Of a stretch of DNA of 64,000 nt, positions 11,265 to 48,830 are shown one piece after another; within the stretch, counting starts at the first letter, position 1, and the number at the start of each line of letters is the position of its first letter. The DNA comes from Promethearchaeota archaeon. Its GTDB lineage: Archaea; Asgardarchaeota; Lokiarchaeia; Sigyniarchaeales; SOKP01. Made by a program: the position numbers and the translations under genes. The DNA lies in the NCBI GenBank assembly GCA_016930515.1, contig JAFGGO010000158.1:1-64000 (forward strand). Direction: 5' to 3'. A model generated the notes under the pieces. That model was given only the letters and a program-made list of their open reading frames with translations, was not told the origin of the DNA and made no database searches.

Positions 11265-11268
11265 CGAT

Positions 11269-13611: not shown

Positions 13612-13618
13612 ATCTTTA

Positions 13619-16797: not shown

Positions 16798-16824
16798 TTT
16801 ATTCTTAATTATTTGTATTTCGTA

Positions 16825-31537: not shown

Positions 31538-32632
31538 ATGACCGTTGGATTCGTTTATCATCCTATATATCTCGAGCATAGGATTGGAACTCATGTGGAA
31601 AGCCACGAAAGACTTATCATTTTGATGGATTACCTCAAGGAAAAAAAACTCTTCGATTCTCCTGATTACAAGCTCATCACCCCTCAAGCAGCGTCTTTAG
31701 ACCAAATTAGATATGTACATGACGAAAACCTTATCGAACAGGTCCAATCCTTGAGTAAATTAGCCGAATCAACGGGAAGAACCCAAGTCATAGATTACGG
31801 AGACACGCTTATTTCGCCTAAAACATACGAAGCTTCTTTATATTCGGTTGGAGGAAACCTTACGGGCATCGATGAAATCTTGAGTGGCAATATTTCAAGT
31901 GCTTTTGCTGCAGTGAGACCTCCGGGGCACCATTCAAACGCCCATAAGTGTTCAGGGTTTTGTATTTTCAACAATGTAGCAATAGCGATAGAATACTTGT
32001 TTCGGGAAAAAAATATGAAACGGGTCGCCCTGATCGATTGGGATTGCCATCACGGTAATGGCACTTCAGACATATTTTACGGGGGAAGTCCATCTGAAAA
32101 AGGGGAATTCGTCATGTTCAATTCTCATCAAGACGGTCGGACGCTCTACCCAGGAAGTGGGTTCCATAATGAGATCGGTTCGGGAAAAGGTGCAGGAAAA
32201 ATAATCAATTATCCGATGCCTCCTCAAGCGGCCGACGATGTCATCATGTTGTATTTTGAGGAAATTATTTCCCCAATTCTAGAAGAATTTAAACCCGAAT
32301 TTTTGCTTATATCTGCCGGTTTTGACACTCATTGGACGGACAGGCTCACGAATATGGGTTGGACATATCAAGCTCCGGCAAATTATTTAAAACTTATTAA
32401 AACCGTTGCGGATAAGTATGCTAGCGGTAGGATCTTGATCACGCTTGAAGGAGGATACGAAGCCGGCAAGCAAGCAATAGCCATTTATAATTGTCTGAAG
32501 GTTCTCAATAGTGACGATAATCTCGTGTTAGAAACGGAGAGAAAATCAGAAGAGAATCTCTTGGATTACATGAGGAATAAAGTAATTGCGAAATTAAAGG
32601 AAAACCTCTCTTCCTATTGGGATTGTTTCTGA
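31538..32632 (+). CDS. Zn-dependent histone-deacetylase-family protein
   Basis: RPPGHH, GFCIFNN, DWDCHHGNGT, YPGSG, SAGFD, LEGGY. Confidence 0.93.
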   Translation: MTVGFVYHPIYLEHRIGTHVESHERLIILMDYLKEKKLFDSPDYKLITPQAASLDQIRYVHDENLIEQVQSLSKLAESTGRTQVIDYGDTLISPKTYEASLYSVGGNLTGIDEILSGNISSAFAAVRPPGHHSNAHKCSGFCIFNNVAIAIEYLFREKNMKRVALIDWDCHHGNGTSDIFYGGSPSEKGEFVMFNSHQDGRTLYPGSGFHNEIGSGKGAGKIINYPMPPQAADDVIMLYFEEIISPILEEFKPEFLLISAGFDTHWTDRLTNMGWTYQAPANYLKLIKTVADKYASGRILITLEGGYEAGKQAIAIYNCLKVLNSDDNLVLETERKSEENLLDYMRNKVIAKLKENLSSYWDCF

Positions 32633-32750
32633 ATTGGCTCTCGTCTCGCACGCAATTGCAACCGATAATTGAGTGTTACACCTCAAACGTTTTTTTTCTT
32701 CTAAAGTGTTTGAAATGTCACTAATATTTTCTATGAGTTCATATAATAGC

Positions 32751-32760
32751 TTTAAATACT
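32751..32760 (+). promoter_or_regulatory. Putative TATA box (TTTAAATACT)
   Basis: Upstream of the 32838 gene; the same 10-mer occurs at 56029-56038 upstream of the 56070 gene. Confidence 0.3.
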
Positions 32761-32837
32761 AAAGGGTTATAATTAAATTATCTGTATCATTATTTTAATT
32801 TCAAGGAAACACCAATTAAAAATAGGAAAGGTGAAAC

Positions 32838-33692
32838 ATGTCAAACTATAACTATAACGATGATGAAGAAGACGAATATGGTATGGGCAAACCGCCCGTA
32901 GAACCTCCTTTAACACCTCCCCCACGAGCACCTGGAACTGCTCCGCCTCCGCCATCCGTTCCTCCAGCGCCCACTTTTTCAGCCTCTCCCCCTCCTTCGC
33001 AATCTTACTCGGCAGCCCCCGCAGCCCCCTCCACGCAGCAATATCAAAACACGGTTAACCAGCTCCAAACCCAAGTCGGTCAATTACAAGCACAAGTGAG
33101 TTCCAAGGACGCTCAGATCAACCAATTAAATTCTCAACTCAATTCCGTACAATCTTCCATTCAAGGTTATCAGAATCAGATTGCCCAGTTGAACAACGAA
33201 CGAGGTCAACTTCAAGCCCAGATTCCCGGGCTCCAAAGTCAAATATCGCAATTACAACAACAAAATTCAATGTTATCGGGACAAATAGGGCCGCTTCAGG
33301 CACAAATCGCTAAATTAACTGATGAACTCAGGTATAAAGACAAGAGAATCGCTGAATTGAAAGAACCGGTTCCTGTTATGACCAGTTCATTATCTCAAAG
33401 TTCAGGCTCTCAAGGATTAAGTGGTACTTCGTTTCCGGGATCTTATGGTAGCTCGTCGTATGCAACACCTTCTCCCGCCTCACCCTCCCCTGAAATATCC
33501 GCCTCACCCGCACCCGCAGCTACTCCAGACTCTTCTTCCGGAGGAATGGGTGCTAGAAGAGTATGCGTGAACTGTGGGGCAACGGGTAATGCCATCCGGG
33601 AAGTTGAAGACAGGTCGAGAATAATAAGTTACATTCCCAAAACGATTTATGCGAAGCAATTTCAGTGTTCTAAATGCGGATACACATTTTAA
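32838..33692 (+). CDS. Proline-rich / Gln-rich coiled-coil protein with C-terminal zinc ribbon
   Basis: Acidic N-terminus, PPP tracts, ~110 aa Q-rich heptads, S/P linker, CVNC...CSKC; GGTGA SD. Confidence 0.8.
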   Translation: MSNYNYNDDEEDEYGMGKPPVEPPLTPPPRAPGTAPPPPSVPPAPTFSASPPPSQSYSAAPAAPSTQQYQNTVNQLQTQVGQLQAQVSSKDAQINQLNSQLNSVQSSIQGYQNQIAQLNNERGQLQAQIPGLQSQISQLQQQNSMLSGQIGPLQAQIAKLTDELRYKDKRIAELKEPVPVMTSSLSQSSGSQGLSGTSFPGSYGSSSYATPSPASPSPEISASPAPAATPDSSSGGMGARRVCVNCGATGNAIREVEDRSRIISYIPKTIYAKQFQCSKCGYTF

Positions 33693-33988: not shown

Positions 33989-36900
33989 ATGTCTGAAATT
34001 AGAGAAAAAATTTTAGGTCCCAGCAATGTACGATCTCAAATCCTGAAAGTTGTCTTCCTCTCCGTGATTTTAGTTGTAGCCTTTGCGTTTTCCGTGGCAT
34101 TATTAAATATTGCGTTCGGATCATTACGAAATATCCCCAGCGAAAAGCAAAGCAACGCAGATTATGAATATTTAGAGGAAGTGGACATCCCTTTTCCTTT
34201 TGATCCCTTAGCGCTTCTTCAATTATTCCAAGACCTTGGTCTCGAAATAACTCCAGAAATGATTGAGGACCTCTTAGACATGTTTGACGGTGATTTTGAC
34301 GACATTCCGCTTGAAGACTTGGCGGCATTAATGGCTGCGTTAATGTTCTCTAATGTAGAAGTGTTTAGCGTCTACGATCACGAACTCACACCTATAGACG
34401 ATATGGAAGATTACCTGTGGAAGTATGAGTGCTACGATCAGTACCGAGACGGAGTATGGAGTGCTATGGATTCCGATCTCGACACGGTCGACTTTTTCAC
34501 GGATTATACCGAACCTCAACTTGGTTATACAGAAATTTATAAGATTAAGTTCTCAAATCTTAGCGTAAGCGCGGGAACCAATCAATTTACCGCTCCTACC
34601 TTATTTTCTAGCCCGCTTATAATGCAAGGAAGCGTTGAAGCACAACAATTAGACACAGATTCTGTATTAGTACGAGCACAAACAGATGGTTTAAACGGCG
34701 CGGCCTTGAGGGCGTCTTTTGATAGTGATGTGAATACTGATCTGTCTTATCTCTTGAGGGGTGTGAGTTTACCCACGGAAGAGGATTTGAATGGTAGTTG
34801 CGTCTATGTAAGCAATCCATCGAGTGGATACACCCAATTAATCGATACTTACCAGCAAGTTAACGGTGAAGATCTTTTTACATACATTGATCGTTCTTGG
34901 ATGACCGATTTTAAGGTCGTTTACGATGATCTTGCCGCTAACATAATTCAGCCGGAAGATAACGCTTTCATTATTGCCAATAAGATCCGTAATTATCTTC
35001 AATCTAATTACACCCTGAATTATAGTCCCATGCCTGAGACAGAAACCGATCGACTCAACTGGTTTTGCGCTTCTGGAGAAGGTTTATATTCTGATTTTGC
35101 CTCGGTTTTTTGCATCCTTGCAAGGGCATTTGATGTTCCTGCTCGCTTCGTTGACGGCTTTAACAACCGTGCTGTAGAACAAAAAATTGATCCTATCGAA
35201 GGTTCTGGTTTTTCCGTGTTATACAGGAATATCTACAGTTGGGCGGAAATCTTCGTGCCAACAGACGCTCAAGGAAACGGCGCTTGGCAACAATTCGATG
35301 TTTATTACGAAAATTACGAAGGAATCCCTCTCGTACCTCCATTCTTGGAAAGCAATTACACGCTCGATGTAATGTGTAATGGACATTCCATTTATGACCC
35401 ATTCTATGCCTTGGTTGATAGAACCGATTCGATTACCTTATCTGCAAATTTAACCTTAAATTCCGTTCCTGTTCCAGACGAGCTGATCACATTCAAGAAC
35501 TACGGTTCGAGTACCGCGCTTGGAACCGCAACGACAAACTCTTCGGGTATTGCCGAAATAACCGTTCCCGTTGGTAGTTCGCGCGTGGCCGGGCCTAACT
35601 TCGTCATCGGAGAATACTCGCCAAATGTTTTAGGGTTTGGATATTTTATCGTGAACGACACGCTTTCAATTACCTTTAATATAATAAATCCATCGAGTCC
35701 CACGGCAATCAACGTGTCAGATGTAAGCAATTCAACCATATCCGTTAGTGGTTATGTGGAAGATTCGAACTCGAATAGAGTTCGGTACACGAATATTGAA
35801 TTCGCCCTTTACGAAAATGGCACTACAAATCGGTTCTACGCGTTCAATCCAGACACTACCACGGCAGACAATAATGGTGCATTTAGTGCAGACTTGTTCG
35901 TGGACGGTAATTTCGTGGATAAAGGAGATTATCAAGTGTTTGCAAGCGCAATGGGTACTTGGAATTATACCTTTCCTCCAGATACCACGATATACACGAT
36001 TCCATCGCCATATTTTCCCTCGTCAGTGACCGGAATGAGCGCTCCTCAAGCTCTTTTTATTGATAAAGAAATTCCCCTAATCTTGAACTTTTATATAAAT
36101 GATATCCCATCCGATGACGCTTCTAGCCCCATTGTTTCTCGGGGATCAACACTTTCATTGAAAGCGCAAGTGCTTGACCCGATCGGAACGCCAGTTGATG
36201 GTGTTGTGGTTGAATATTACGAATATACCAATGGTACTTTAATAGGATCGGCAACAACCGGTCCAACGGGCAATACAACAACGATTGTAAATTACTTGGT
36301 TGGAAAATATAATGCCACGGTAGGACCGAACTTGCTATATGCAAGAGTTGGATATCAGTATAATTATTCTTATTATATCTTGGACGATAATGTTTCTTTC
36401 TCGTCCATATCATTAACAGGACCTTTTCCAAGTCTCGTGGTAAATAAGACTCAAGGAGATTATTTTATAGTATCAGGATATCTATATGACGAAAAAAGCA
36501 ATGCACCAGTTGAATATTCGAGAGTTACGCTAAGAATGTTTAAAGGAATTACGAATTACGAATTAACAACATCTGTAAATGCTGATGGTTCTTTCTCAAT
36601 AGCGTCTTACGCCACTGGAATGGAAGTTGGAAATTATTCTCTGCGTTTGGATTTTAACGGATCCTATGTGATAAATTCCCCCCATCCATATCCTTATAAT
36701 TTTAACCTTACTTTAATTTCTGGTTATCACATATTTTTGTCAGAATTACAAATAACGGAGTTTAGCCCTATTAGGCTAGATTTTTGGATAAACGACATTC
36801 CTGCTGACGATTATCAGAATCCGGTCATTACCAGATCTAAAAGCGTGAATCTTTCCGTCTATCTTTCGCAAGGGCTAGTTCCTATAAGCGGAAGAGTGTA

Positions 36901-38569
36901 CTTGTATGACTTGACTAACGATACGGATATAGGGTTTATAGATACGGGTAGCGACGGTTTTGCTTGGTTAACATATAATACGACATCAAATACATTGGCT
37001 GGCCCTCACCTGATTCGCGCAAGGTACGGTGCGTCGCTATATAATTATTCTTATTTCGTGTTAAACGCACCGATAACCGTGTCGTTTGATGCGGGGCCCG
37101 ACCCAACCTGGGTGTACGATAACTATTACACCAATAGGACGTTCCGGATTCAAGGTTCTTTAATCGATGCTACAAACGGCCTTCCCATAACAGGAGGAAT
37201 TGTTGAGACTATTCTCGTTGGTGGATTAGATTCTTACCTGACTAGCAATGGTGGAAGTCAGCAAGTGGATAATTTTTTCATATGCAATCAAACAGGGCTA
37301 ATTAACGCATATTATAACATCACGACTGGAACTCCACATCAAAATTACACCCTCAGGCTTGATTTTTACGGTGCATTCTATAACTATTTTGGAATTCCTT
37401 CCTTTCCAAACGTATTAGATCTCAGCTCTTTTAGTAATTTTACAGTTTCAGATTTTGGCCTTAACCAGTTAGAAGTAAGGGATTATTACAATCTCATGAT
37501 CACTTTATTGGTAAATGGAAATCCCGTTCCTTATGTGTATCCCTCAGGAAGTCTTCCTGCGATTGTAAACCTCGGGAATAACATCACATTTAGCGGAACC
37601 GTATACCATTCAACTCCTGTTGGAACAATAAGAATATATGATTATTACGCAAATCCATCAACACCCATAGCTGCTACTCCAACGGATGGTTCGGGAAATT
37701 ACTACATTGAACTCAATACCTCCTCTTATTCTTTACACTCAGGACTCCATCTCTTTAGGGTTACTTATGTTTATATGGGCAGCGAATTTCCAACATACAA
37801 CTCCACATATATAATCGTTGACGAGACGATTAGCAGTTTTTCGATGACCTCTACTGAGTCTAATGTTATTCGAAATGTTGACAGTTTTATTATTTCGGGT
37901 TACCTTCAGGACGGGGGATTTGGGTTAAGAGGATTACAGGTGCAACTAAGGTTATACGATGGAGCAATGGTCGATCGTTCGCAATATTTAATTCTTGAAT
38001 CAGGGTATTCCCTTACGGCCATCACTGATAACTCTGGATATTATCGGTTTGAAATTAATCATTTAAACATCTCGTGTCCCCAGGGAAGTTACACTATAAG
38101 GGTGGAATTTTACGGGAATATAATTCGATCAGATTTTCCCATTTCCATTGGAATATCGGGTGCAATGACCGGTTCAAATAGTAATAGCATTTCTTTAACT
38201 GTTAATGCGGGCATGTATTTTGAATCGTTATTATCTGGTTTTAATACGGATTTTCAACCATTAAATCCATCTGATTGGTACCTTTTTGATGTCCTTCATG
38301 TGTGGGGGCGCTTGGTTTGGGACAATGGTACTGGTGTCTCAGGAGCGACTCTTAACATCACCGTCGAATATAGAGTGAACAATATAGTATTTGCTTATGA
38401 TGACACATTCACGACCGATCCTAACGGTTATTTCAACGGTTCAATAGATGTGGATTCTAGATTTGATGATGTCGAGATGATTAGCCAAACAATTATTTCT
38501 GTAAATTATAATCCAATCGATGATGGTTTTACTTATGTAATAGCACCTGATGAGGAAACATACAACTAA
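33989..38569 (+). CDS. Large N-terminally anchored extracellular protein: transglutaminase-like domain plus tandem Ig-like repeats
   Basis: N-terminal TM; TGase-fold signature G-L-Y-S-D-F-A...LARAFDVPARFVDGF...YSWAEIF...WQQFD; four ~230-240 aa beta-rich repeats; many N-x-S/T sequons. Confidence 0.85.
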   Translation: MSEIREKILGPSNVRSQILKVVFLSVILVVAFAFSVALLNIAFGSLRNIPSEKQSNADYEYLEEVDIPFPFDPLALLQLFQDLGLEITPEMIEDLLDMFDGDFDDIPLEDLAALMAALMFSNVEVFSVYDHELTPIDDMEDYLWKYECYDQYRDGVWSAMDSDLDTVDFFTDYTEPQLGYTEIYKIKFSNLSVSAGTNQFTAPTLFSSPLIMQGSVEAQQLDTDSVLVRAQTDGLNGAALRASFDSDVNTDLSYLLRGVSLPTEEDLNGSCVYVSNPSSGYTQLIDTYQQVNGEDLFTYIDRSWMTDFKVVYDDLAANIIQPEDNAFIIANKIRNYLQSNYTLNYSPMPETETDRLNWFCASGEGLYSDFASVFCILARAFDVPARFVDGFNNRAVEQKIDPIEGSGFSVLYRNIYSWAEIFVPTDAQGNGAWQQFDVYYENYEGIPLVPPFLESNYTLDVMCNGHSIYDPFYALVDRTDSITLSANLTLNSVPVPDELITFKNYGSSTALGTATTNSSGIAEITVPVGSSRVAGPNFVIGEYSPNVLGFGYFIVNDTLSITFNIINPSSPTAINVSDVSNSTISVSGYVEDSNSNRVRYTNIEFALYENGTTNRFYAFNPDTTTADNNGAFSADLFVDGNFVDKGDYQVFASAMGTWNYTFPPDTTIYTIPSPYFPSSVTGMSAPQALFIDKEIPLILNFYINDIPSDDASSPIVSRGSTLSLKAQVLDPIGTPVDGVVVEYYEYTNGTLIGSATTGPTGNTTTIVNYLVGKYNATVGPNLLYARVGYQYNYSYYILDDNVSFSSISLTGPFPSLVVNKTQGDYFIVSGYLYDEKSNAPVEYSRVTLRMFKGITNYELTTSVNADGSFSIASYATGMEVGNYSLRLDFNGSYVINSPHPYPYNFNLTLISGYHIFLSELQITEFSPIRLDFWINDIPADDYQNPVITRSKSVNLSVYLSQGLVPISGRVYLYDLTNDTDIGFIDTGSDGFAWLTYNTTSNTLAGPHLIRARYGASLYNYSYFVLNAPITVSFDAGPDPTWVYDNYYTNRTFRIQGSLIDATNGLPITGGIVETILVGGLDSYLTSNGGSQQVDNFFICNQTGLINAYYNITTGTPHQNYTLRLDFYGAFYNYFGIPSFPNVLDLSSFSNFTVSDFGLNQLEVRDYYNLMITLLVNGNPVPYVYPSGSLPAIVNLGNNITFSGTVYHSTPVGTIRIYDYYANPSTPIAATPTDGSGNYYIELNTSSYSLHSGLHLFRVTYVYMGSEFPTYNSTYIIVDETISSFSMTSTESNVIRNVDSFIISGYLQDGGFGLRGLQVQLRLYDGAMVDRSQYLILESGYSLTAITDNSGYYRFEINHLNISCPQGSYTIRVEFYGNIIRSDFPISIGISGAMTGSNSNSISLTVNAGMYFESLLSGFNTDFQPLNPSDWYLFDVLHVWGRLVWDNGTGVSGATLNITVEYRVNNIVFAYDDTFTTDPNGYFNGSIDVDSRFDDVEMISQTIISVNYNPIDDGFTYVIAPDEETYN
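35360..38210 (+). repeat. Four diverged tandem protein-level repeats (~230-240 aa, two Ig-like domains each)
   Basis: Units start near 35363, 36083, 36776 and 37499: FYINDIPSDD/FWINDIPADD; GPNLLYAR..YNYSYYIL/GPHLIRAR..YNYSYFVL/GPNFVIG/GLHLFRV; GNYSLRLDF/QNYTLRLDF/GSYTIRVEF. Confidence 0.7.
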
Positions 38570-38587
38570 CAAATAATTAAATGAATA

Positions 38588-40219
38588 ATGAATTTACAAG
38601 AAAGAAAAGAAGATAATTCTATCATGTCAAGAAAGCACTCTGAGAAAATAAAAAATCGTGTTAAAGCATTATTTCTATTAATAACGATAGTATTCTTAAT
38701 TTCTACAATTTATATTATCAATTTCGCTAACTTGAATGAATCATCTATTGATTTCGAAAAAGAAGTGAAGCCCTCAGCAATTTGGGCTAATCTAGATCTT
38801 TTAAACACAGAAATAGACGGTAATCGCTATATACTGGGGAATGAAATCGTACCTCTGTACGGTCGGCTTTATCACCCTAAACTTCCATCTCAGAATTATA
38901 TTGGTTATACAGTGCAAGTCATGCTAGATGGTGTCCTTTATCCGTCCTATTATAATATTACGGTAGATCAAGGTTACTTTTATATCTTGAATTTTTCGCT
39001 ACCAGTAGATACCAATGTGTATGTACCCCATACTATCAATGTTTCTGTTTTAAATCCTTTTGATGATGTTAATTATACTAATTCATTTACTATATACGGA
39101 AGCACGGCTTCCTATTTTGACAATGTGATCGTAGATAACGCTCAACCATATTATTCTGGCGAATCAATAGATGTTTCAGGTAGTTTGCTCCTTGGTGATG
39201 ATACTGGAGTCTCTAATGAGCCAATTTACGCAGGTTGGTACGATAATTTGAATAATCCCGTGTATATTTTTGGATCGCCGATCGATAATACTGGTTTGGA
39301 CGGTACATTTACCACATCCGTGCAAACCCCTGATGCGTCGGGGAATCTCACGCTCAGGTTATCTTATTCAAACCCTCCTATCGTGACATATTCCGAAATA
39401 GATTGTTCAAATATATTTGTCTTTCAAAATATAACATTAACGAATCCATCGACCTCAGTAGGAGTTGCAGGGCAGGAATATACCATTTCGGGGAGATTAG
39501 CTTCTGTTTTTGGTAACTTTTATATTTTTAATAGAGCCGTGACGGTAGTCTATAACGATTCCTCTTCCACATATGGTCTTGCCCAAACTGATTCGCAAGG
39601 AAGGTTTACTTGCATGCTCACGCTTCCCAATGTAAATGGTACCGCGAGTTATCAAGTATATTTAAACTCATCAAGTGGACTAGTTCTCGCAGGTACTGTG
39701 CCTGACATACTCATCAATGCCGCTCCCGTGACACCTTCTGGGGGGCCTACAGGTCAAATACCCTTCGCAGATTTTTTTATGGTGTTCATACCAATTGTGG
39801 TCGTCATAGGTGCTGCATTAGCCGGATATGGCTATTACTTCCTGAAAAAACAAAGGAAAGCGTCTTTATCCACTACCATCCCTCTCGAGAAAAAGATTTC
39901 GAACCTTAAAATATTAAAGGAAACGGGCAGGTTGGAAGAAGCCTTGTCGTACTTGTTCAATGCGATTTTTATGACTCTCATTGACGGGAAATACGGTCGG
40001 AAGAAGAAAGAGTTTGAAACGATTCGAGATTTTGCGATCGTTTCGGTAAAGGAATTCAAGATGAAACCAACGGTCGTGTATCCATTCATGACAAAAGTGG
40101 AGGAGATTATCTATTCCAGGCCGTTTGAAATGACCGAAAGCGATTTTTACAGCGCTATAGAATTATTTAGCCGTGTCTATTTCGATCTCACTGGATATAA
40201 TTTCGTGTTAAAATTTTAA
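38588..40219 (+). CDS. Membrane protein with extracellular Ig-like domains and C-terminal cytoplasmic DUF4129-like domain
   Basis: N-terminal TM, beta-rich region (TGLDGTF, TDSQGRF), second TM, then EEALSYLF...ETIRDFA...VEEIIYS. Confidence 0.75.
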   Translation: MNLQERKEDNSIMSRKHSEKIKNRVKALFLLITIVFLISTIYIINFANLNESSIDFEKEVKPSAIWANLDLLNTEIDGNRYILGNEIVPLYGRLYHPKLPSQNYIGYTVQVMLDGVLYPSYYNITVDQGYFYILNFSLPVDTNVYVPHTINVSVLNPFDDVNYTNSFTIYGSTASYFDNVIVDNAQPYYSGESIDVSGSLLLGDDTGVSNEPIYAGWYDNLNNPVYIFGSPIDNTGLDGTFTTSVQTPDASGNLTLRLSYSNPPIVTYSEIDCSNIFVFQNITLTNPSTSVGVAGQEYTISGRLASVFGNFYIFNRAVTVVYNDSSSTYGLAQTDSQGRFTCMLTLPNVNGTASYQVYLNSSSGLVLAGTVPDILINAAPVTPSGGPTGQIPFADFFMVFIPIVVVIGAALAGYGYYFLKKQRKASLSTTIPLEKKISNLKILKETGRLEEALSYLFNAIFMTLIDGKYGRKKKEFETIRDFAIVSVKEFKMKPTVVYPFMTKVEEIIYSRPFEMTESDFYSAIELFSRVYFDLTGYNFVLKF

Positions 40220-40296
40220 CAAAATAAGGTAAAATTACAAAAAGAAAATATTATAAGTGTGAAAAAAATTAATTAATAAAAAAAAGGTTGGATATC

Positions 40297-40683
40297 ATGG
40301 CTAAAAAACCGAACTTGAGAAAAAAAAAGAAGAAACAAGAGCCTGAATATAATGCAAAAGAACGATTTGAAAACGTGAAAATTCTCGTCCAAACAAAACG
40401 GCCGAAGGAGGCAATTGCCTACATCTATTTAGTATACACGGATCTTATCTTTAAGAAACATAAGAAACCTCGAGAACCGTATCAAACCATTCGCGAGTAC
40501 GCCATAACGTGCGTTAATGAACTGGGTTTAAATCCACAAAATACTTATGTCTTCATTAAACAAATAGAAGATATAATATACGGCGGTGTGGAGCCCACGT
40601 CCAAGGAATTCGAATCGACTATTTCATTATTTTCAGCGTTGCACAAGGAAATCACGACCAAATCGTTTTCTTTTAGTTTGTAA
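40297..40683 (+). CDS. Stand-alone DUF4129-like protein
   Basis: KEAIAYIY...QTIREYA...IEDIIYGG; evident paralogue of the preceding gene's C-terminus; ATG 40297 (the ORF track starts at TTG 40288). Confidence 0.75.
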   Translation: MAKKPNLRKKKKKQEPEYNAKERFENVKILVQTKRPKEAIAYIYLVYTDLIFKKHKKPREPYQTIREYAITCVNELGLNPQNTYVFIKQIEDIIYGGVEPTSKEFESTISLFSALHKEITTKSFSFSL

Positions 40684-40718
40684 AAATCAAATAGTAAATT
40701 TATTCAAAAGGATATATT

Positions 40719-42551
40719 ATGGCAACAACAGGAACGGGAGCATCGTCACTTAAAAGCGTGCAAATTTCCAAGGGTTTATTATACGCGTTTTTTTGCGTGT
40801 ATTTAATCATTTTTGGATTCATCATAATGGATTTTACCGCAGCGTTTCAGATTCAGAACCCTGGATTATTACCCTCGTTCTTTAGTTATATTCCTTACGT
40901 TTGTTTTATTGGAGCTGTTTTTCTAATTTTAGCTTTTATCTGGTTTTTTAGAAATTCAATGGTACAAAAATCTCGAGAAAGTAGGTCCCGAAAGTCAAAA
41001 AAAGGTTCCTTATATAAAAGAGCGCTGTTCGCAATCATATTCGTTTTTGCTTTTATCCCATTGTTTTCTCCCGTTGTCGATCAAGGAAAGAACAATCACT
41101 ATTTTTCCGTATACAATAGTGAATGGAATGGATGCTCTTCCTATCTCGCCGCCATCGAGGCTGCTGGATTCGAAACGATGAGCATTCAATCCAGCTTGAG
41201 CGCAACCGAACGCTTGGATAAATCCGTTTGTTTAGTCCTGTTAGGTCCTAATCAAGTTTATAATCCAATGTTTGATATTCCTTTTTTTATTGGATTCCTC
41301 AACAGTAGTAGTCAAACGAAAAAGAATTCCCTTTTCATAGCACACGACCACGGATCGAGTTATTGGCTTTTATGGGAGGTATTTTTAGCGAATCTTGCAT
41401 CAATGATCTCGGCCGGGGGAAACGCCTCAATGTTTCCAATGACCATTATGGCCGATGGCATATTACACGACAATGCTTCGTGCCTTACAAACGAACTAGG
41501 ACAAGGAGATCCCACATTTCCCATAATTACGAATTTGGAACCTCATCCAACAACGGTGGGAGTGTCGCAGGTGATCTTATCGGAAGCTACTGCCGCAGCT
41601 GGTGGAAAATTATTAATTGAAATGTTTGGATGGGATGTGATAGGACAAACTTCAAGCGATAATAGTTGGGTAGATAAAAATGGAGATCACATGTATAGAT
41701 TAAATAATGATTCTACTCCAGCAGACGATTATATTGATTTATCTTTTATTATAGAACCATTAGAAGAAGTTACTGACGTCGATCTTAGTATGCTCGAGAG
41801 ATTTCCCCTCGGGAGTTCTATTGTCGCTCCAACGGTCTTCTTGGCGAAGGAATTGGCAAACACTCGCGTGTTCGTGAGCTCGGATGCCAGTTGTTTTTCC
41901 AACGACCTTTTATTCGACTACGATAATTATCAATTTGGAATGAACATTATCAATTGGCTTACCTATCAAGGTGTTGACGATCCAAACAACTGGGTCATTG
42001 CCTTTGACGAGGCTCACATTCGTCCCGAATATTCTCGCGATCTTACTTCTGCGGGTATATTTGGGCTCATCTTGGAATATGTTGTTCAATTATCAACAAA
42101 TCCCATTACTGCGTGGATTTACCCGCTTTTAGCTGTTTTTACCTTGCGAAAGTACATACCTAAAAAAGATGAAAAAGCAGAAAAGAAAAGGATTGAAGAA
42201 GAAGAAAAAAAGGAAGAAAAAGAAATGTTCCGAACATCAACCTTTTTCACGCAAAAAATTGATTGGTATAAGGAGAAAGGTCGTTATGGAAAGGCCATCA
42301 CGTTGCTATTCAGGAGAATTGAGAGAAAGCTTAACGCTCAATTAGGAGGAAAACAAATTACTACGAACAATGTCATCGATCTCGTAGTGGCGAAGGAAGC
42401 GGGGGGAAAAGTAAACAAGATGAAGTTAAAAAGATTAACGAAAATTATGGATAGATTATTGGCCATTAAAGCTGGAAAAAGTAAAGTAAGAAATCCTCAG
42501 GATTTCGAAGAATTGTTCTTGGAAATGTCCTGGGCGATGAAAAATATATGA
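40719..42551 (+). CDS. DUF4350-like membrane protein
   Basis: 3 N-terminal TMs; FSVYNSEWNGCSS; HPTTVGVSQVIL; SDASCFSNDLL; IAFDEAH; C-terminal TM and cytoplasmic tail; next to MoxR. Confidence 0.7.
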   Translation: MATTGTGASSLKSVQISKGLLYAFFCVYLIIFGFIIMDFTAAFQIQNPGLLPSFFSYIPYVCFIGAVFLILAFIWFFRNSMVQKSRESRSRKSKKGSLYKRALFAIIFVFAFIPLFSPVVDQGKNNHYFSVYNSEWNGCSSYLAAIEAAGFETMSIQSSLSATERLDKSVCLVLLGPNQVYNPMFDIPFFIGFLNSSSQTKKNSLFIAHDHGSSYWLLWEVFLANLASMISAGGNASMFPMTIMADGILHDNASCLTNELGQGDPTFPIITNLEPHPTTVGVSQVILSEATAAAGGKLLIEMFGWDVIGQTSSDNSWVDKNGDHMYRLNNDSTPADDYIDLSFIIEPLEEVTDVDLSMLERFPLGSSIVAPTVFLAKELANTRVFVSSDASCFSNDLLFDYDNYQFGMNIINWLTYQGVDDPNNWVIAFDEAHIRPEYSRDLTSAGIFGLILEYVVQLSTNPITAWIYPLLAVFTLRKYIPKKDEKAEKKRIEEEEKKEEKEMFRTSTFFTQKIDWYKEKGRYGKAITLLFRRIERKLNAQLGGKQITTNNVIDLVVAKEAGGKVNKMKLKRLTKIMDRLLAIKAGKSKVRNPQDFEELFLEMSWAMKNI

Positions 42552-42623
42552 TCAATTTTATGTAATTATTGAATAATATAAATAAAAAATATAAAAAATA
42601 ATACAAAATAGGAGTGAAGAAAT

Positions 42624-43601
42624 ATGGCAGAAAAAGCTAAATCTCGAGATTCTAAGGATTCGCTTGATGTAACACCAATACGAGAAATTGCTCAAGATGT
42701 TTTATCAGAGGTATCTCGAGTGATTGTCGGAAACGGAGAAATCTTACAACACTTGTTTGTAGCGCTGCTCGTAAACGGTCACGTGCTCTTGGAAGGAGTT
42801 CCTGGTTTGGGCAAGACAGTCATGGCAAAGACTTTTGCAGAGACCTTGGGGATATCGTTTAAAAGAGTGCAATTCACGCCAGACCTCTTGCCAGCAGATA
42901 TAACAGGAACGAAAATTTTCGACCAACAAGAGGGCGCTTTCGTTCTTCAAAAAGGACCTATATTTGCAAACCTCGTGCTTGCAGATGAAATCAATAGAAG
43001 TGCCCCAAAGACGCAAGCAGCTCTCCTCGAAGCGATGGCCGAAAGACAGGTCACGATCGAAGGACAAACGCTTATGCTTGAAAAACCGTTCATGGTGGTA
43101 GCTACGGAAAATCCGGTGGAAATGGAGGGGACATACCCCTTACCTGAAGCTCAAGTTGATAGATTCCTTTTTAAATTATGGTTGGATTATCCCGAGCATC
43201 AAGAAGAAGTTGAAATCCTTCGAAGACAACTCACTGGCGATTCTCCGTCCGTAGAAACCATCACGAATGGCGAGGAACTATTAGCGGCACAAAAATTGAT
43301 GAATATGGTGTACATTGACGATCGCATCTTGAAATACATTCGGGACATCATTTTAAAGACTCGAAATCACCCTCAAATCGCCTTAGGGTGCGGTCCGCGA
43401 GCTTCCTTGGTGCTCATGAAATGTTCAAAAGCGCGAGCGGCCATTCTTGGCAGGATTTACGTTACACCCGATGATGTACGAGCCCTATCAATGCCCGCTT
43501 TAAACCACAGGATCCTTCTCAAGCCTGAAGCTGAACTTGAAGGTTTGGATGTTAAATCCGTGGTTAAAAGCATACTCGAGGAAATACCCATACCAATTTA
43601 A
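42624..43601 (+). CDS. moxR: MoxR AAA+ ATPase (MoxR-proper type)
   Basis: GHVLLEGVPGLGKT, RVQFTPDLLPAD, LADEINR, LLEAMAE, GTYPLPEAQVDRF. Confidence 0.95.
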   Translation: MAEKAKSRDSKDSLDVTPIREIAQDVLSEVSRVIVGNGEILQHLFVALLVNGHVLLEGVPGLGKTVMAKTFAETLGISFKRVQFTPDLLPADITGTKIFDQQEGAFVLQKGPIFANLVLADEINRSAPKTQAALLEAMAERQVTIEGQTLMLEKPFMVVATENPVEMEGTYPLPEAQVDRFLFKLWLDYPEHQEEVEILRRQLTGDSPSVETITNGEELLAAQKLMNMVYIDDRILKYIRDIILKTRNHPQIALGCGPRASLVLMKCSKARAAILGRIYVTPDDVRALSMPALNHRILLKPEAELEGLDVKSVVKSILEEIPIPI

Positions 43602-43653
43602 TTGCGCATTAAATTGGAACTAGATCAAGAAAAAAAGTTGGTGGTGGATAAAC

Positions 43654-44982
43654 ATTTTTGGTGGAAAAGGTAGGACATTAATATTATTTGCGGCGTTTTT
43701 CCTATGTGCAGGATTTGCATTCGTAAATTACTTTCTAATTTACTTCGGGATCCTCCTGTTATTTAGTACGGTGATTAGTTTACCGTTTTTTGCGCTGCAC
43801 ATGAATGTGGAGGAATTAATTGTACACCGAGAACTTGACAAGGAAAAAGTTTTTCGGGACGATTTTTTGCATGTTAAAGTAGTAATTGAAAACACTGGAA
43901 GGCACAATTTTGACTTTTTAGAAATTCGAGATTATTACAATCCCCAACTTTTTAGATTAATCCTCGGAGAAAATTTCATCTCAACGAGAATAGGCGCAAA
44001 AAAAACTATTAAGTTTTCATATATCCTCGAGCCCAAAGTAAGAGGAGAATATCCATTAGGACCGTTGTCCTTAACCGTAAAAGATAGGTTGGGATTCAAT
44101 TCCACCGAGCGAATTGTTCCTAACAGTGTAACGGATATTCTAGTTTATCCGCCTTACGAAGACATCAAGAGGATCGAAATCTTGGGATCAAAAAGGTCCT
44201 TACAATTAAATTACGGTTCTCAAAGGTCCAAGCAGAAAGGTACGGGTACCGAATTCTACGGAATGAGGAGGTACGCGTTTGGAGATCAATTCAGGTTGAT
44301 TGATTGGAAAGCTAGCGTTCGGCAGCAGAGGCTTATCGTGAGAGAACACGAAACCGAAAGGGATGTCACCGTTATGATTTTAGTAGATTCTTCTAGTAGT
44401 ATGGCTGGTGGCGCAATAGAAAACACTAAATTCGAATATGCCATTCGTGCTTGCATGTTATTAACTAAAGTATCACTCACGAGAAGAGATAGCGTTGGAG
44501 TTTATACTTTTTCCGATAAAAAAAACTTCAAGTTCTTGAAACCAAATCGGGGGGATGATCAGTTTTATACCGTATTGGATTTCGTTGCGAGAGTAAAACC
44601 TGCGGCAAAATGCCGGTTTGCCGAAGCAATGGACACGTTCACGAAGAGATTTCAAAAACGCAGTCTGATCTTTATCATATCCGATTTAGAATCAAACACG
44701 AAGGATATAACCGAAGGTATAAAGAAATTGCTTCCTTTCAATCATTCTGTTATCTTGATCAATCCGTTCTCGCCGTGGTTTGAAATTCACGAAATGGATT
44801 TATCTTCCACGGATAAAGCCTTGGCAGAAGCAATTAGTGAGGAGATGATGGAACACATCTTAGCTATCAAGCAAGAAATCAGCAGATTAGGCGTTAATCT
44901 CGTAACTTGTGGACCCGACGACATGCTAAATCAAGTATTAGCAAATTATATGGAGGCAAAGAAAAAGGGAAAGGCGTATTAA
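43654..44982 (+). CDS. DUF58 / vWA-like protein
   Basis: RGEYPLGP, LVYP, GTEFYGMRRYAFGDQFRLIDWKAS, DSSSSM (DxSxS), ISD. The ORF track starts at GTG 43771, but the frame is open from ATT 43654 and adds two TM segments. Confidence 0.9.
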   Translation: MFGGKGRTLILFAAFFLCAGFAFVNYFLIYFGILLLFSTVISLPFFALHMNVEELIVHRELDKEKVFRDDFLHVKVVIENTGRHNFDFLEIRDYYNPQLFRLILGENFISTRIGAKKTIKFSYILEPKVRGEYPLGPLSLTVKDRLGFNSTERIVPNSVTDILVYPPYEDIKRIEILGSKRSLQLNYGSQRSKQKGTGTEFYGMRRYAFGDQFRLIDWKASVRQQRLIVREHETERDVTVMILVDSSSSMAGGAIENTKFEYAIRACMLLTKVSLTRRDSVGVYTFSDKKNFKFLKPNRGDDQFYTVLDFVARVKPAAKCRFAEAMDTFTKRFQKRSLIFIISDLESNTKDITEGIKKLLPFNHSVILINPFSPWFEIHEMDLSSTDKALAEAISEEMMEHILAIKQEISRLGVNLVTCGPDDMLNQVLANYMEAKKKGKAY

Positions 44983-44985
44983 ACC

Positions 44986-46461
44986 ATGGCACGAAATTAT
45001 TTGTTAGGATTGAGACTCGTTAATGGAATCATATTTATAATCGTTTTATCAATATTTTTAAGCGTTTTTAATTACCTGGCGATTCTTTACACGGATACCG
45101 GAGAATTAGCCATAGTTGCATTTATATTTTCTATTAAAAACGTTTTAACTTATTTTATTTTTATCGTGATCTACGGTATCGGATATATGGTTTCTTTTGT
45201 CGTTACTTTTGGACAAGCTGAGTCGATAAGGGCGGTTCAATCGTTTTTTAGGACCCTTTTTAGTTCCTGGTTTAGTTTTTCCACACCAACGGGAGAAGCT
45301 CCTGAGTTGGAAAATATACTTGATGAGGTCTTGGAAGAATTACAGATCTTTCTTTCAGATGCCTACTTGATCATCTTTCAAGTCTGCTTCATCATTGCCA
45401 TTATTTATGCGATCAGGGCAATTTACAAGAGCAATCCGAAGTACAACCTCAGGTCGATTGGTGGTTTGATGTTAATGATTATCATCCCAATAATGGTATT
45501 TGGATTTAAAGACATGATGGCGCTATTTGGTTTCCCAATAGAACTCCTTGTCCCTCAACTCGCAGATTTACCCAATCCTGTAAGTTCTAGCGTTAATGAA
45601 CTTCCTATTGACGATTTTTTCTTGTTTATTAGCAGTTCGATCTCTGGACTTGCCATATTCGCTTATATATATTTAGAGCTCGCCTTTCAAATTAATTATA
45701 CGGATTTGGTTACTAAACCTTCCCTCGAAAGAAGCGATCGTTTACAAGCTCAATTGAGATTGTTAAAAAAAGAGTCTACCCATGTGATCGCAAATGTTGA
45801 TAAAATAAAGGAAGAAGCAAAAAAAAGAAAGGAAGAATTAGAACTAAAAAAAGAATCGGTGGGGAAATTGTTTTCGAGCACGATTAGCTCTAGCTTTTCT
45901 TATGTTAAGGAAATGATAGAAAAGAAAAAACTCGAGGCTGAAGAAAAGAAGCTCGTCACCGCTGCCTCTAAGACCAGAAGATTGGGACGGTTTATTGAGC
46001 GTCTTTTTCAAGAAGACTCAGAAGCTGAGGACACAATTACTGCGAAATCGGCCGCCCCTAGGGCCATGCATCTTGCAAAATCGACTGTTATAAATTTTTC
46101 CATTCGTCTCATGCTTCTTATCATCATTAGCTTTATTATAATTCACCCGGAATGGTTCCTTTCGAATATCTTCCAGTTACCCCCTGCCATCAGTAAAAGC
46201 GTGGTGTTACAAGGTTCCCCCGAGGGGATTATCATTTTATTACTTCCGATTATTGTTGTAATTCCTGTAATTTCATTGGCAATCTCCTATTCGAAACATA
46301 GAAACCTCATGATTAGGCTAAGGCAAGAAGGAAAGATAAAACAAATACTCACGACAGTCGGGGATTATGTGAAAATTGAAGAGGAAGAAAAACCTGAAGA
46401 AGCAGAGAAAGAAAGCGCAGAGCCCTCGCTCACTCCAGAATCATCTCCTGAACCCTCGTGA
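44986..46461 (+). CDS. Polytopic membrane protein with cytoplasmic coiled coil
   Basis: ~7 hydrophobic segments, charged central coiled coil, acidic tail; 3 bp after the DUF58 gene. Confidence 0.7.
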   Translation: MARNYLLGLRLVNGIIFIIVLSIFLSVFNYLAILYTDTGELAIVAFIFSIKNVLTYFIFIVIYGIGYMVSFVVTFGQAESIRAVQSFFRTLFSSWFSFSTPTGEAPELENILDEVLEELQIFLSDAYLIIFQVCFIIAIIYAIRAIYKSNPKYNLRSIGGLMLMIIIPIMVFGFKDMMALFGFPIELLVPQLADLPNPVSSSVNELPIDDFFLFISSSISGLAIFAYIYLELAFQINYTDLVTKPSLERSDRLQAQLRLLKKESTHVIANVDKIKEEAKKRKEELELKKESVGKLFSSTISSSFSYVKEMIEKKKLEAEEKKLVTAASKTRRLGRFIERLFQEDSEAEDTITAKSAAPRAMHLAKSTVINFSIRLMLLIIISFIIIHPEWFLSNIFQLPPAISKSVVLQGSPEGIIILLLPIIVVIPVISLAISYSKHRNLMIRLRQEGKIKQILTTVGDYVKIEEEEKPEEAEKESAEPSLTPESSPEPS

Positions 46462-46467: not shown

Positions 46468-47418
46468 TTATAATTCTAAATCTAGCACGAATCTCGCTAG
46501 ATCTTCCTTTTTTTTCTGGTCCTTCATGATAGTATCAAAACAATGCGCTTGGATTCCTAAATTATCGATCTCTATTTTTCGATCGTAATCCTCGCTATCA
46601 ATAACGAAATGTGAAATTATATCTTGGTAATATTTGGCAACTCCAACACAAGACGCTTCGTGGCCTAAAGCTTCCATTAACTTATCTGCAGGGCCTTTTA
46701 AGGTAGCACCTTTAATTATTGGGCTTATTGCAATAACCTTTTTATGTGCATTTTTTAACGCTTCTTTAATACCCAAGACGCTTAAGATAGTCCCGATAGA
46801 AACAATCGGGTTTGAAGGACATATGATAATTCTTTCGGCGCTCTTAATATAATCGAATATTGCTTTTATGGGTCTTGCGTTCTTATTACCCCTAAATTCG
46901 ATCTTTATGACTCTTGGTTCACATCGCTCTTTTATGAAATATTCCTCAAAATGCATGGTACCAGAAGGCGTTTGAATGTAAGTTTGGAACTCCTCGTTAC
47001 ACATGGGAACAATTCGTGCTTTAATGCCTAGTTTTTGGGTAATAGCTTGTGTTGCTTCGTACTTGTTAAAACCTTTAGCGATTAAATCAGTGCGGAAAAT
47101 GTGGGTGGCTAGATCCTTATCCCCTGCGTTAAACCATCCAATTCCATAGTACTTACTCAGAATATTCAAGCAATTAAACGATTCGTCTTGAAATCCCCAT
47201 CCTTTTTGATCATCCACTACTCCCGCAAGCGTGTAGGTTATGATATCCAAGTCGGGACATATTTTTAAGCCGAATAAATCTATATCGTCCCCTGTATTTA
47301 CTACTATAGCAATATCCTCTTGGTCCACCACGCTGGCAATGCCCTTGACAAACTTTGCTGCCCCGACTCCTCCTGCTAACAATAAATATTTTGTACGATT
47401 GATGATATTTCCCCTCAA
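46468..47418 (-). CDS. cofD: 2-phospho-L-lactate/PEP transferase (F420 biosynthesis)
   Basis: LAGGVGAAKF, NTGDD, PDLD, GDKDLATH, HFEEYF, PSNPIVSIGTIL, KGPADKLM. Confidence 0.95.
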   Translation of the reverse strand: MRGNIINRTKYLLLAGGVGAAKFVKGIASVVDQEDIAIVVNTGDDIDLFGLKICPDLDIITYTLAGVVDDQKGWGFQDESFNCLNILSKYYGIGWFNAGDKDLATHIFRTDLIAKGFNKYEATQAITQKLGIKARIVPMCNEEFQTYIQTPSGTMHFEEYFIKERCEPRVIKIEFRGNKNARPIKAIFDYIKSAERIIICPSNPIVSIGTILSVLGIKEALKNAHKKVIAISPIIKGATLKGPADKLMEALGHEASCVGVAKYYQDIISHFVIDSEDYDRKIEIDNLGIQAHCFDTIMKDQKKKEDLARFVLDLEL

Positions 47419-48830
47419 TAAAAATCCTTTGGACTAAACATTATTTCTGATAATCCTTTTCGGTTTGGAATTATTGGTTCCTTGGTTCCCCGCCCTATAG
47501 TGAGGAAAGCAAGGGGTTCGAAAGAATTGGGCAGATTTAACGCTTTTTTTACAACTTCTTTTGCAAAAAGTGGCGCACAATACCAACAAGCAGCCAATTT
47601 TTTAGATTCCAAGGCAAGAAGCAGGCACATGATGGAAGCACTAACACTTTGCACTCCTAAAATATATTCGCTTTCTCTTCTCTTATCGTCGCCATACTTC
47701 TCTAAATCGGTAGTATCCAGGCATGCGAGCATTAAATAGGGAGCATCTATGAATTTCCTTCGGGTTTTATTTTTCTTTTTCGTGATGAATTCAATAGTTC
47801 TTCCATCACGTAATAAATCATTTTTAAGCTCTTGGTTCATTTTTTCAATTAAATTATTTCTAAGATCGCCTTTTTCAAGTAAGAAATACCTCCAAAACTG
47901 TCCGTTATGGGCGCTAGGTGCCAAGGTCGCCAGTTTCACGCATTCCTTGATGATTTGAGCGTCTAATTCCTCGTCGTTGAATTTTAATTTATAGCTTCTC
48001 CGATTTTTCAGTACCATTTCAAAATCGTATGGTGATTTATCGATTCGAAACAAGTCTGCTTTTTTATCTCGTAAGATCGTCTTGATTGAGGCGTTTTTTT
48101 CAAACGAAAAATTATATCCCCTTATGATAACGACTGGTTGTCCCTCGTTCGCTTCCCCCATCACGAGTTGCGCCGCAGATGCTAAATTATCCGCTTGTCC
48201 AACTATGGTGCTTTCTAATATATGACCAAATAAATCGCAGTATCCCCTTTGATCCTTTTCAGGGCGAATACCAAATATCCCTAGTGCAACTCCCACGGCT
48301 CCAACCCTAAAAGGACGACCGAATGAGTCCGTAATGATCACAGCCACCTCCTTGTTGGTTGCTTTTTTCAGCGATTGGGCAATTGTCTTGGCATCTTCGT
48401 CAGGATTTTCGGGAAGAAGGGCTATATTACCCTCGCCCTCCACATTAGATTTATCGATTCCTGCGTTGGCACATACGAAACCGTGTCTTGTTTCGGTAAT
48501 GAGCACATGCTCGATTTTGAGGAGTTCTTTTGATTCATCCAATATGGCTTGAATGTGCTCCGGAGTTTTTAAAGGCAGGTTTTTTGCTTGAGTTTTTTGT
48601 TTCATTAAACGATAAATATTGCGCGCTTCTGTGGTTGGTACGATTTCCTTGAGGTTGCGAATCCTTCCATTGCTTTTAGAAACAATAGTTTGGGCGATTA
48701 TCACGATATCACCGTCTTCTAAACAAATTTTATTCTTTTGAACGCATGTTAAAATTTGACTTGAAATGTTGTCTCCAGGATTAACAAGAGGAAAACCCTT
48801 TAAACTCAAGATTTCAATTTTTTCGTTCAT
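47415..48830 (-). CDS. cofE: F420:gamma-glutamyl ligase CofE fused to a nitroreductase domain (FbiB architecture)
   Basis: CANAGIDKSN, LLPENPD, DSFGRPFRVG, MGEANEGQP; C-terminal RRSY...APSAHNGQFW...ACWYCAPLF. Confidence 0.92.
   Translation of the reverse strand: MNEKIEILSLKGFPLVNPGDNISSQILTCVQKNKICLEDGDIVIIAQTIVSKSNGRIRNLKEIVPTTEARNIYRLMKQKTQAKNLPLKTPEHIQAILDESKELLKIEHVLITETRHGFVCANAGIDKSNVEGEGNIALLPENPDEDAKTIAQSLKKATNKEVAVIITDSFGRPFRVGAVGVALGIFGIRPEKDQRGYCDLFGHILESTIVGQADNLASAAQLVMGEANEGQPVVIIRGYNFSFEKNASIKTILRDKKADLFRIDKSPYDFEMVLKNRRSYKLKFNDEELDAQIIKECVKLATLAPSAHNGQFWRYFLLEKGDLRNNLIEKMNQELKNDLLRDGRTIEFITKKKNKTRRKFIDAPYLMLACLDTTDLEKYGDDKRRESEYILGVQSVSASIMCLLLALESKKLAACWYCAPLFAKEVVKKALNLPNSFEPLAFLTIGRGTKEPIIPNRKGLSEIMFSPKDFY

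Follow-up and report, generated by a model that had tools for sequence, protein, structure and literature searches.

The archaeal neighbourhood of arCOG01314 (DUF4350) has been described as a "predicted secretion or membrane remodelling complex" (Makarova, Galperin and Koonin 2015, PMC5898192), and this description is a prediction only. Together with the bacterial MoxR-DUF58-TgpA operon, it is the nearest described relative of the seven-gene cluster treated here, g1 to g7, which is found at positions 33989–46461 of a 64,000 nucleotide stretch of contig JAFGGO010000158.1 (hereafter the window) from a Promethearchaeota archaeon of the order Sigyniarchaeales. The likeness consists of a DUF4350 protein, a MoxR-type ATPase, a vWA-domain protein and immunoglobulin (Ig)-like membrane or surface proteins, all four of which are present in the Asgard cluster. 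The Asgard form differs by the addition of a giant protein with a transglutaminase-like domain and Ig-like repeats, of DUF4129-type tails, one of which occurs as a free small protein, and of the membrane protein g7. In the Asgard cluster a membrane hairpin is predicted to tether the vWA protein on the cytoplasmic side, whereas the arCOG01314 vWA protein is predicted to be secreted. In addition, the DUF4350-like protein of the window's order (g4) displays three extra transmembrane segments (TMs) at its N-terminal end.

Bacterial operons provide a second point of comparison. The PA2875-PA2874-tgpA operon of Pseudomonas aeruginosa is co-transcribed, and TgpA is an active, essential periplasmic transglutaminase of less than 700 amino acids (aa) with a multi-TM N-terminal domain (PMC3507681). 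The tgpA operon and the MoxR-vWA-YebA/TGL operon (PMC3495828) share with the Asgard cluster the triad of MoxR, DUF58 and a membrane transglutaminase-like protein. Unlike TgpA, the Asgard protein has a transglutaminase-like head that is predicted to be dead and more than 1000 aa of predicted glycosylated Ig-like repeats, it is split from the DUF4129-type tail in the window's order, and DUF4350 and g7 genes are added to the locus. The TgpA_N/DUF3488 multi-TM N-terminal domain has no Pfam match in the cluster, where g1 displays a single N-terminal TM.

The Esr system of Actinomycetales (bioRxiv 10.64898/2026.09.08.750141) and the PFNA operon of bifidobacteria (PMC8430577) are similar to the cluster in that an Ig/FN3-repeat surface protein is combined with MoxR, vWA/DUF58 and a transglutaminase. 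Esr senses epibionts in oral Actinobacteria and activates Esx secretion (bioRxiv 10.64898/2026.09.08.750141). Both systems are bacterial and are without DUF4350, DUF4129 tails and g7. They have Ser/Thr kinases, and Esr also has a phosphatase, FHA, a β-propeller sensor head and Esx effectors, but none of these is linked to the Asgard cluster.

An open-access paper that treats the cluster in Asgard archaea does not appear to exist in the literature searched, and none was found that follows up arCOG01314. An earlier note on this DNA had nevertheless termed the cluster an undescribed system, which is too strong, as the DUF4350-MoxR-vWA-Ig core was predicted in 2015 (PMC5898192) and MoxR-vWA-transglutaminase operons were discussed in 2012 (PMC3495828, PMC3507681). 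With the core already predicted, the window adds a further member and further detail rather than a new kind of system.

The reading proposed here, which is put forward tentatively and given slightly less than an even chance, is that the cluster is the Loki-type form of an Asgard envelope module in which MoxR and DUF58 serve as an assembly/remodelling or quality-control chaperone of a surface complex. The gene content, the homologies and the linkage of the genes are observed and are presented first. Counts given for the phylum refer to 201 sampled Asgard genomes and those given for the order to 41 genomes.

All seven genes are found in order in ten loci of the window's own family. These loci keep their flanks as well, thus synteny within the family by itself says little. 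In two other families of the order, whose flanks are not the same, g1-g2-g3-g4 remain together. MoxR follows g1–g4 in four of these loci, and the DUF58 and g7 genes adjoin or are preceded by one or two inserted genes, which are tetratricopeptide repeat (TPR) and leucine-rich repeat (LRR) genes or a DEAD-box helicase gene. The inserts are seen between MoxR and DUF58 in a sister family, where the TPR and LRR protein genes are at positions 12962–17110 of locus L019 and the helicase gene, on the opposite strand, is at positions 13053–14426 of locus L020. A different rearrangement is found in the own family at positions 11959–12933 of locus L014 (genome G009), where MoxR, still situated between g4 and DUF58, is reversed relative to the other cluster genes, which keep their orientation. 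The inverted MoxR gene is flanked only by weak AT-rich inverted repeats, and the flip may reflect either a genuine inversion or a fault of the assembly.

Synteny across Asgard genomes, which the earlier note had set as a test of its proposal, extends across the phylum. The sample comprised 14 loci of 13 other Asgard families, and the same gene set recurs in 12 of these loci, often with g1 and g2 fused. Seven of the 14 display a fused giant followed by DUF4350, MoxR, DUF58 and g7, and in one of these (L043) the giant and DUF4350 are separated by a small DUF4129 gene. In three others the transglutaminase-like protein is separate and is accompanied by an Ig giant that ends in a DUF4129 tail, by a small DUF4129 gene and by DUF4350; MoxR, DUF58 and g7 follow in two of the three. 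In a further three loci a DUF4129-type gene, DUF4350, MoxR, DUF58 and g7 are present, and a transglutaminase-like head was not detected. From the N-terminal end, the fused giants comprise a TM, the transglutaminase-like head, Ig repeats, a second TM near the C-terminal end and a DUF4129 tail. With a TM at each end, the whole ectodomain would be looped outside the cell. This layout, an external transglutaminase domain between TMs with a cytoplasmic DUF4129 tail, is presumably that of TgpA. Judged from these sequences, the order of the window has the fused-giant gene split into g1 and g2.

g7 is present in 175 of the 201 Asgard genomes (82 of the 85 high-quality ones), nearly always as one copy, and DUF58 in 191; within the order g4 is found in 39 of the 41 genomes. 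Neither g7 nor DUF58 was detected in families f18 (0/5) and f12 (0/1). Where both DUF58 and g7 were located they adjoin, and in more than 70 genomes with coordinates listed for both, the matches are on one contig and at most about 1 kb apart. The two genes are still together in genomes where the cluster is broken (G028, G030 and G054). The module occurs in almost every sampled Asgard archaeon, once per genome in the window's order and in most genomes sampled, and its linkage is far beyond chance and persists where the flanks differ.

g1 is predicted from hydropathy and charge to have an N-terminal TM anchor at about aa 20–40 followed by about 1480 external residues, which include an acidic region. 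It has 37 N-x-S/T sequons, or 2.4 per 100 aa, compared with 0.3–0.45 per 100 aa in MoxR and DUF58. The Transglut_core profile (PF01841) matches aa 314–437 with 50.9 bits (cut-off 23) and an E-value of 2e-13 (8e-15 in a second scan). Matches to β-sandwich families are weaker; CarboxypepD_reg (37.1 bits) alone clears its cut-off, and Big_3_5 and bMG3 are sub-threshold. The four repeat units that follow the transglutaminase-like core are 24–32% identical in pairwise comparisons (E-values of 1e-22 to 2e-3, BLASTP of segment against segment).

The catalytic triad of this core is not intact. The catalytic Cys and the His are both replaced by Tyr and the Asp is kept, such that the motif G-x-C-x-x-F-A reads G-L-Y-S-D-F-A and H-x-W reads Y-S-W; the earlier note's identification of a pseudo-transglutaminase agrees with this. 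In an alignment of 22 Asgard orthologues, the position of the catalytic Cys is Y, W, F, P, D or S in every readable sequence except that of genome G075. His and Asp are retained in some Asgard families. By fold and homology the g1 head is a member of the transglutaminase superfamily, and from its residues it is predicted to be no functional transglutaminase or peptidase. Across the phylum, the aligned sequences indicate that the head is mostly a pseudo-enzyme. The giant of G075 (locus L047, positions 9935–13684) keeps an intact Cys-His-Asp and represents the sole such Asgard family among the aligned orthologues; its head is possibly enzymatically active and may be useful for comparison.

The predominance of the pseudo-enzyme argues against the model of membrane-proximal ATP-dependent proteolysis (Zhang and Aravind 2012), in which the vWA protein recruits a substrate, MoxR unfolds it and the transglutaminase-like peptidase cleaves it. 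Such a role was proposed for the MoxR-vWA-YebA/TGL operon (PMC3495828), and the intact triad of the G075 family is compatible with it. The catalytic Cys is however lost in the window, in the whole of its own family and in most other Asgard families, and the His is lost in many. The domain is furthermore predicted to be outside of the cell, across the membrane from MoxR. Proteolysis is thus a highly improbable function for the Asgard module.

Orthologues of g1 within the family are only 29–34% identical, and g1 and g2 are the two fastest-evolving members of the cluster. Rapid change is often seen in receptors, and it bears on an alternative in which the Ig stalk and a binding-only head would act as an outside-in sensor for partner cells, surfaces or threats and pass the signal via membrane partners to MoxR-vWA, in the manner of Esr. 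The Esr pathway unites a secreted protein of 14 Ig repeats, a transglutaminase that holds it at the surface, MoxR and vWA (bioRxiv 10.64898/2026.09.08.750141), and the bifidobacterial PFNA operon joins an FN3 surface protein with MoxR, DUF58 and transglutaminase. Nonetheless no kinase, phosphatase, FHA, β-propeller or effector gene is seen in or beside the cluster in more than 30 loci, and the scanned neighbours are unrelated housekeeping genes. The module is near-universal, and single-copy in the order and in most genomes, unlike patchy conflict systems. Also, a dead transglutaminase would not provide the covalent anchoring of the stalk proposed for EsrD, against which the prevalence of the pseudo-enzyme likewise argues. 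A sensor function is considered unlikely, but it is the first of the alternatives in order of likelihood, followed by a secretion system (discussed below with g4 and g7) and then by proteolysis.

Direct scans of the window proteins give no significant Pfam or NCBIfam family for g2, g3, g4 or g7. From hydropathy and charge, g2 is predicted to consist of a first TM (about aa 27–46), a β-sandwich ectodomain of 340 aa, a second TM (about aa 390–415) and a cytoplasmic tail of about 120 aa. It has ten sequons and all are within the ectodomain. The tail aligns with g3 at 31% identity, and g3 is predicted from hydropathy to be soluble.

The DUF4129 profile (PF13559, cut-off 24.8 bits) has no match at an E-value of 10 in the window proteins or anywhere in the genome. 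It is found above cut-off in 110 of the 201 Asgard genomes, typically at the C-terminal end of the giant open reading frame and in a small open reading frame just downstream. A hidden Markov model (HMM) built from the g3 and g2-tail sequences of the order matches the residues that pass PF13559 in other families, with E-values of 1e-11 to 2e-19; the overlap of residues was checked by coordinates in the L042 giant, the L043 giant and the L043 small open reading frame. Because the same residues are matched by both profiles, the g2 tail and g3 are taken as divergent DUF4129-type modules, an assignment made through transitive homology only. The earlier note had proposed three DUF4129-like modules. 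These two are retained, and the third, the tail of g4, is not supported: hhalign gives probabilities of 7% and 2% for a collinear but non-significant alignment, and none of the g4 orthologues scanned is matched by PF13559.

The TTG at 40288 that is listed as the start of g3 is probably not the true one. Orthologues in loci L018, L019 and L021 align with an internal ATG at 40297 (M-A-K-K...), from which g3 would be 128 aa. An AlphaFold2 model of g3 displays a five-helix bundle with a pLDDT of 86.5, and a structure search with this model gave no PDB match below an E-value of 0.1. Similarity to HEPN-like four-helix bundles was considered and rejected; the best matches (E-values of 0.6–3, TM-score about 0.5) are non-significant, and the HEPN Rx4-6H motif was not seen among the conserved positions. 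Profile searches with g3 and g7 in a set of 5.8 billion proteins gave, among the matches listed, unnamed Promethearchaeota proteins without Pfam annotation.

g4 is predicted from hydropathy and charge to have three N-terminal TMs, an ectodomain at about aa 125–445 and a basic helical cytoplasmic tail at aa 486–610. The segment at about aa 445–480 is weakly hydrophobic and below the hydropathy threshold, and we infer that it is a TM. The earlier note's assignment to DUF4350 finds little in the direct comparison with PF14258, which gives 14.8 bits (E-value 0.035, cut-off 30.4) and covers only the last 32 profile positions. It is the orthologues that pass. The g4 HMM of the order finds g4 orthologues in other Asgard families over both halves, either as one match (1e-40 to 1e-78) or as two (1e-10 to 1e-50), and the five of these that were scanned are above the PF14258 cut-off with 38–73 bits (3e-9 to 7e-20). 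g4 is thus assigned to the DUF4350 type, through transitive homology only. The same orthologues have weaker matches to the GldG-type family ABC_transp_aux, to IFT52_GIFT and to OST48_N. Sub-threshold matches to the eukaryotic OST48_N (E-value 1e-5) and to IFT52_GIFT (4e-4 to 5e-3) are found in the DUF4350 orthologues at L050:7495–8874, L042:9193–10599 and L044:8702–10486. We take these to reflect the known link within the GIFT-domain superfamily.

g5 and g6, which the earlier note had called MoxR and DUF58, are the members with the strongest direct assignments. g5 matches PF07726 (AAA_3/MoxR) with 218 bits (cut-off 27, E-value 4e-65) and PF17863 (AAA_lid_2) with 80.7 bits (6e-23), whereas the match to bpMoxR is secondary (38 bits). 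Both the Walker A (GVPGLGKT) and Walker B (LVLADE) motifs are intact in the translation. It is by far the strongest AAA_3 match in the genome (1.7e-65), followed by four weaker ones that begin at 7e-19. A weaker AAA_3-like match is also present in the window at positions 7976–8395 (E-value 9e-14, in a 314 aa open reading frame). Among prokaryotic proteins, MoxR is the one most closely related to dynein and midasin.

g6 matches PF01882 (DUF58) with 106 bits (cut-off 23.4, E-value 2e-30) and VWA_2 with 44 bits (4e-11), and is the sole DUF58 protein of the genome. Its sequence displays an N-terminal two-helix membrane hairpin, a BatD-like β domain and a vWA domain with the metal ion-dependent adhesion site (MIDAS) motif D-x-S-x-S, which is kept in all 14 DUF58 orthologues compared. 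The presence of the hairpin depends on the start codon. The region around the start (positions 43621–43775) has an in-frame TAG and the tract GGTGGTGGA, followed by ATT at 43654. The first 39 codons from this ATT encode the conserved hairpin, and a start at GTG 43771 would delete it. The codon aligned with ATT 43654 is ATG, GTG or TTG in nine orthologues, ATT in three others (L014, L016 and L022) and ATA in one (L028). The most likely start of g6 on this comparison is ATT 43654. The DUF58 body should then share the cytoplasmic side of the membrane with the positively charged N-terminus, and since the protein would be tethered by the hairpin its vWA domain and MIDAS are predicted to face the cytoplasm.

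The pairing of the g5 and g6 genes, which are 52 bp apart in the window, is kept in most loci examined. Within the family MoxR is 78–87% and DUF58 70–82% identical, compared with 28–39% for g1 and g2. Such a contrast would be expected if a conserved engine serves clients that are exposed and change fast.

g7 is predicted from hydropathy to be an 8-TM protein in which a long helical hairpin in the cytoplasm (aa 218–343) separates about six TMs from two further ones, followed by a charged tail, and an AlphaFold2 model (pLDDT 78.9) agrees with this topology. It has no Pfam or NCBIfam family. An exhaustive HMM search places the g7 family in 130 clusters among 1.84 billion representatives. The close members are from Promethearchaeota, and the most distant full-length named members are from Njordarchaeia, Baldrarchaeia or metagenome-assembled genomes labelled "Korarchaeota"; the named members checked are all of Asgard type. 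Among the conserved features, Y-L-E-x-S-F-Q is found where TM6 ends, TM7 has an invariant Arg and TM8 is preceded by a P-E motif. A Foldseek search of the PDB with the model gave nothing below an E-value of 2, and the neighbours in the ESM Atlas are from its own family only. A likeness to talin/Sla2 was considered and rejected, as the best Z-score in an exhaustive VIA search, 8.2 with generic helical bundles, is within the noise for helical proteins.

The properties of g4 and g7 bear on the suggestion of Makarova et al., made for the arCOG01314 neighbourhood (PMC5898192, section 3.2), of a dedicated secretion system. In the Asgard cluster g4, g7 and the other membrane proteins would form a MoxR-powered or MoxR-regulated conduit through which the giant is exported. 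The ABC_transp_aux matches relate DUF4350 to GldG of the gliding/type IX apparatus, and g7 is a conserved polytopic protein in which charged residues within or close to the TMs are invariant. g1 and g2, however, have ordinary N-terminal signal-anchors suited to Sec/YidC insertion, MoxR ATPases are known as remodelling chaperones and not as translocation motors, and in the structure searches above the g7 model displays no similarity to a known channel or transporter fold. A secretion system is considered unlikely, and somewhat less likely than a sensor.

The chaperone reading is the best-supported one. It is favoured by the conserved engine and the fast-changing clients, by the near-universal spread of the module (single-copy in the order), by the predicted topology and by the absence of signalling or effector genes nearby in the loci scanned. 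The outside of the cell would display a heavily N-glycosylated β-sandwich stalk (g1) bearing the dead transglutaminase-like head, which would be a peptide- or glycan-binding domain and not an enzyme. The shorter stalk protein g2 and the GldG/DUF4350-like scaffold g4 would stand beside it. On the cytoplasmic side there would be the DUF4129-type tail of g2, g3 as a free copy of that tail, the basic helical tail of g4, soluble MoxR, the hairpin-tethered DUF58 protein with its vWA domain and MIDAS, and the g7 hairpin.

In the MoxR-vWA pairs RavA-ViaA, CbbQ-CbbO and NorQ-NorD, the MIDAS of the vWA adaptor binds an acidic residue of the client. By analogy, the ligands of the DUF58 MIDAS would be the cytoplasmic tails, the g7 hairpin or both, and DUF58 would bring in a MoxR hexamer; the invariant Glu of the K-E-A-I-A-Y motif is one candidate for the acidic residue bound. 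Hydrolysis of ATP by the hexamer would then drive remodelling of the transmembrane complex, with the result that the extracellular stalk array is assembled, locked or released. The proposal of the earlier note that MoxR/DUF58 acts on DUF4129 tails, and would in this way assemble, remodel or pull an Ig-repeat structure, is plausible and fits the predicted topology; the interactions and the direction of action in this scheme are ones that we infer.

Several observations weigh against the chaperone reading. In families f19, f22 and f15 DUF58 is present and g7 is little represented or undetectable. Two genera of the order (G030 and G034) have MoxR-DUF58-g7 away from g1–g4, and in G030 MoxR adjoins neither sub-cluster. 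g1 is without a C-terminal anchor by hydropathy. The hairpin topology of g6 is derived solely from hydropathy and the positive-inside rule, and Makarova et al. (PMC5898192) placed the vWA protein outside the cytoplasm, as a predicted secreted protein. Finally, the MoxR-vWA analogy is drawn from clients that are soluble or unrelated.

The features of the cluster are given in Table 1. As the earlier note had described, the cluster consists of seven co-oriented open reading frames with short gaps, of 18, 68, 35, 72, 52 and 3 bp from g1 to g7; the gap between g5 and g6 is 169 bp if g6 starts at GTG 43771. Five genes (g1, g2, g4, g6 and g7) display TMs by hydropathy, also in agreement with the note, in the case of g6 only if the start is ATT 43654.

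Table 1. Coordinates of the cluster genes and of their sub-features in the window.
Feature	Positions	Strand	Description
g1	33989–38569	+	1526 aa surface giant, predicted dead transglutaminase-like core and β-sandwich repeats
g1 transglutaminase-like core	34928–35299	+	aa 314–437; PF01841
g1 tandem repeats	35351–38188	+	four units of about 235 aa: aa 455–695, 695–930, 930–1165, 1165–1400
g2	38588–40219	+	543 aa predicted bitopic protein, ectodomain and DUF4129-type tail
g2 cytoplasmic tail, DUF4129 type	39848–40219	+	about 120 aa, predicted helical
g3	40288–40683	+	small predicted soluble DUF4129-type protein, 131 aa from TTG 40288
g4	40719–42551	+	610 aa membrane protein, DUF4350/GldG-like ectodomain
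g5	42624–43601	+	MoxR-type AAA+ ATPase, 325 aa
g6	43654 (ATT) or 43771 (GTG)–44982	+	DUF58 protein with vWA domain
g7	44986–46461	+	491 aa predicted polytopic membrane protein, no Pfam family

The flanks are unrelated to the cluster. Upstream are an MCM gene, a Ras-like GTPase gene, a histone-deacetylase-family gene and a coiled-coil gene; downstream and convergent are CofD, CofE-nitroreductase, a radical-SAM gene and lipoate ligase. The histone-deacetylase-family and coiled-coil genes (31538–33692) and CofD/CofE (46468–48830) are syntenic in most own-family loci examined and not in the other families examined, and are thus a local, family-level synteny outside of the module. The coiled-coil gene at 32838–33692 was considered as an eighth member and rejected, as it is kept at the family level only, alongside the unrelated histone-deacetylase-family and CofD/CofE flanks.

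Lokiarchaeum ossiferum has no ordered S-layer and displays unidentified "complex surface proteins", and surface proteins of cultured Asgard archaea are thought to mediate contact with partner cells (PMC9834061). The cluster is a concrete candidate for making or controlling Asgard surface structures. It is near-universal and single-copy in most genomes, it has a fast-changing giant predicted to be a glycoprotein, and it has one g7 family that is found so far under Asgard-type labels only. It also offers a tractable case for the function of MoxR-DUF58, as a highly conserved ATPase and adaptor are encoded beside the genes of their likely clients. A more specific possibility, considered doubtful at present, is that the cluster builds and holds the "complex surface proteins" observed on Lokiarchaeia by cryo-tomography, with g7 coupling the MoxR-vWA engine to the Ig-repeat stalk, and that adhesion to syntrophic partners is thereby changed (inside-out) or felt (outside-in). 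If the cluster does build these surface proteins, it would be a core Asgard device for cell contact and would be relevant to models of eukaryogenesis.

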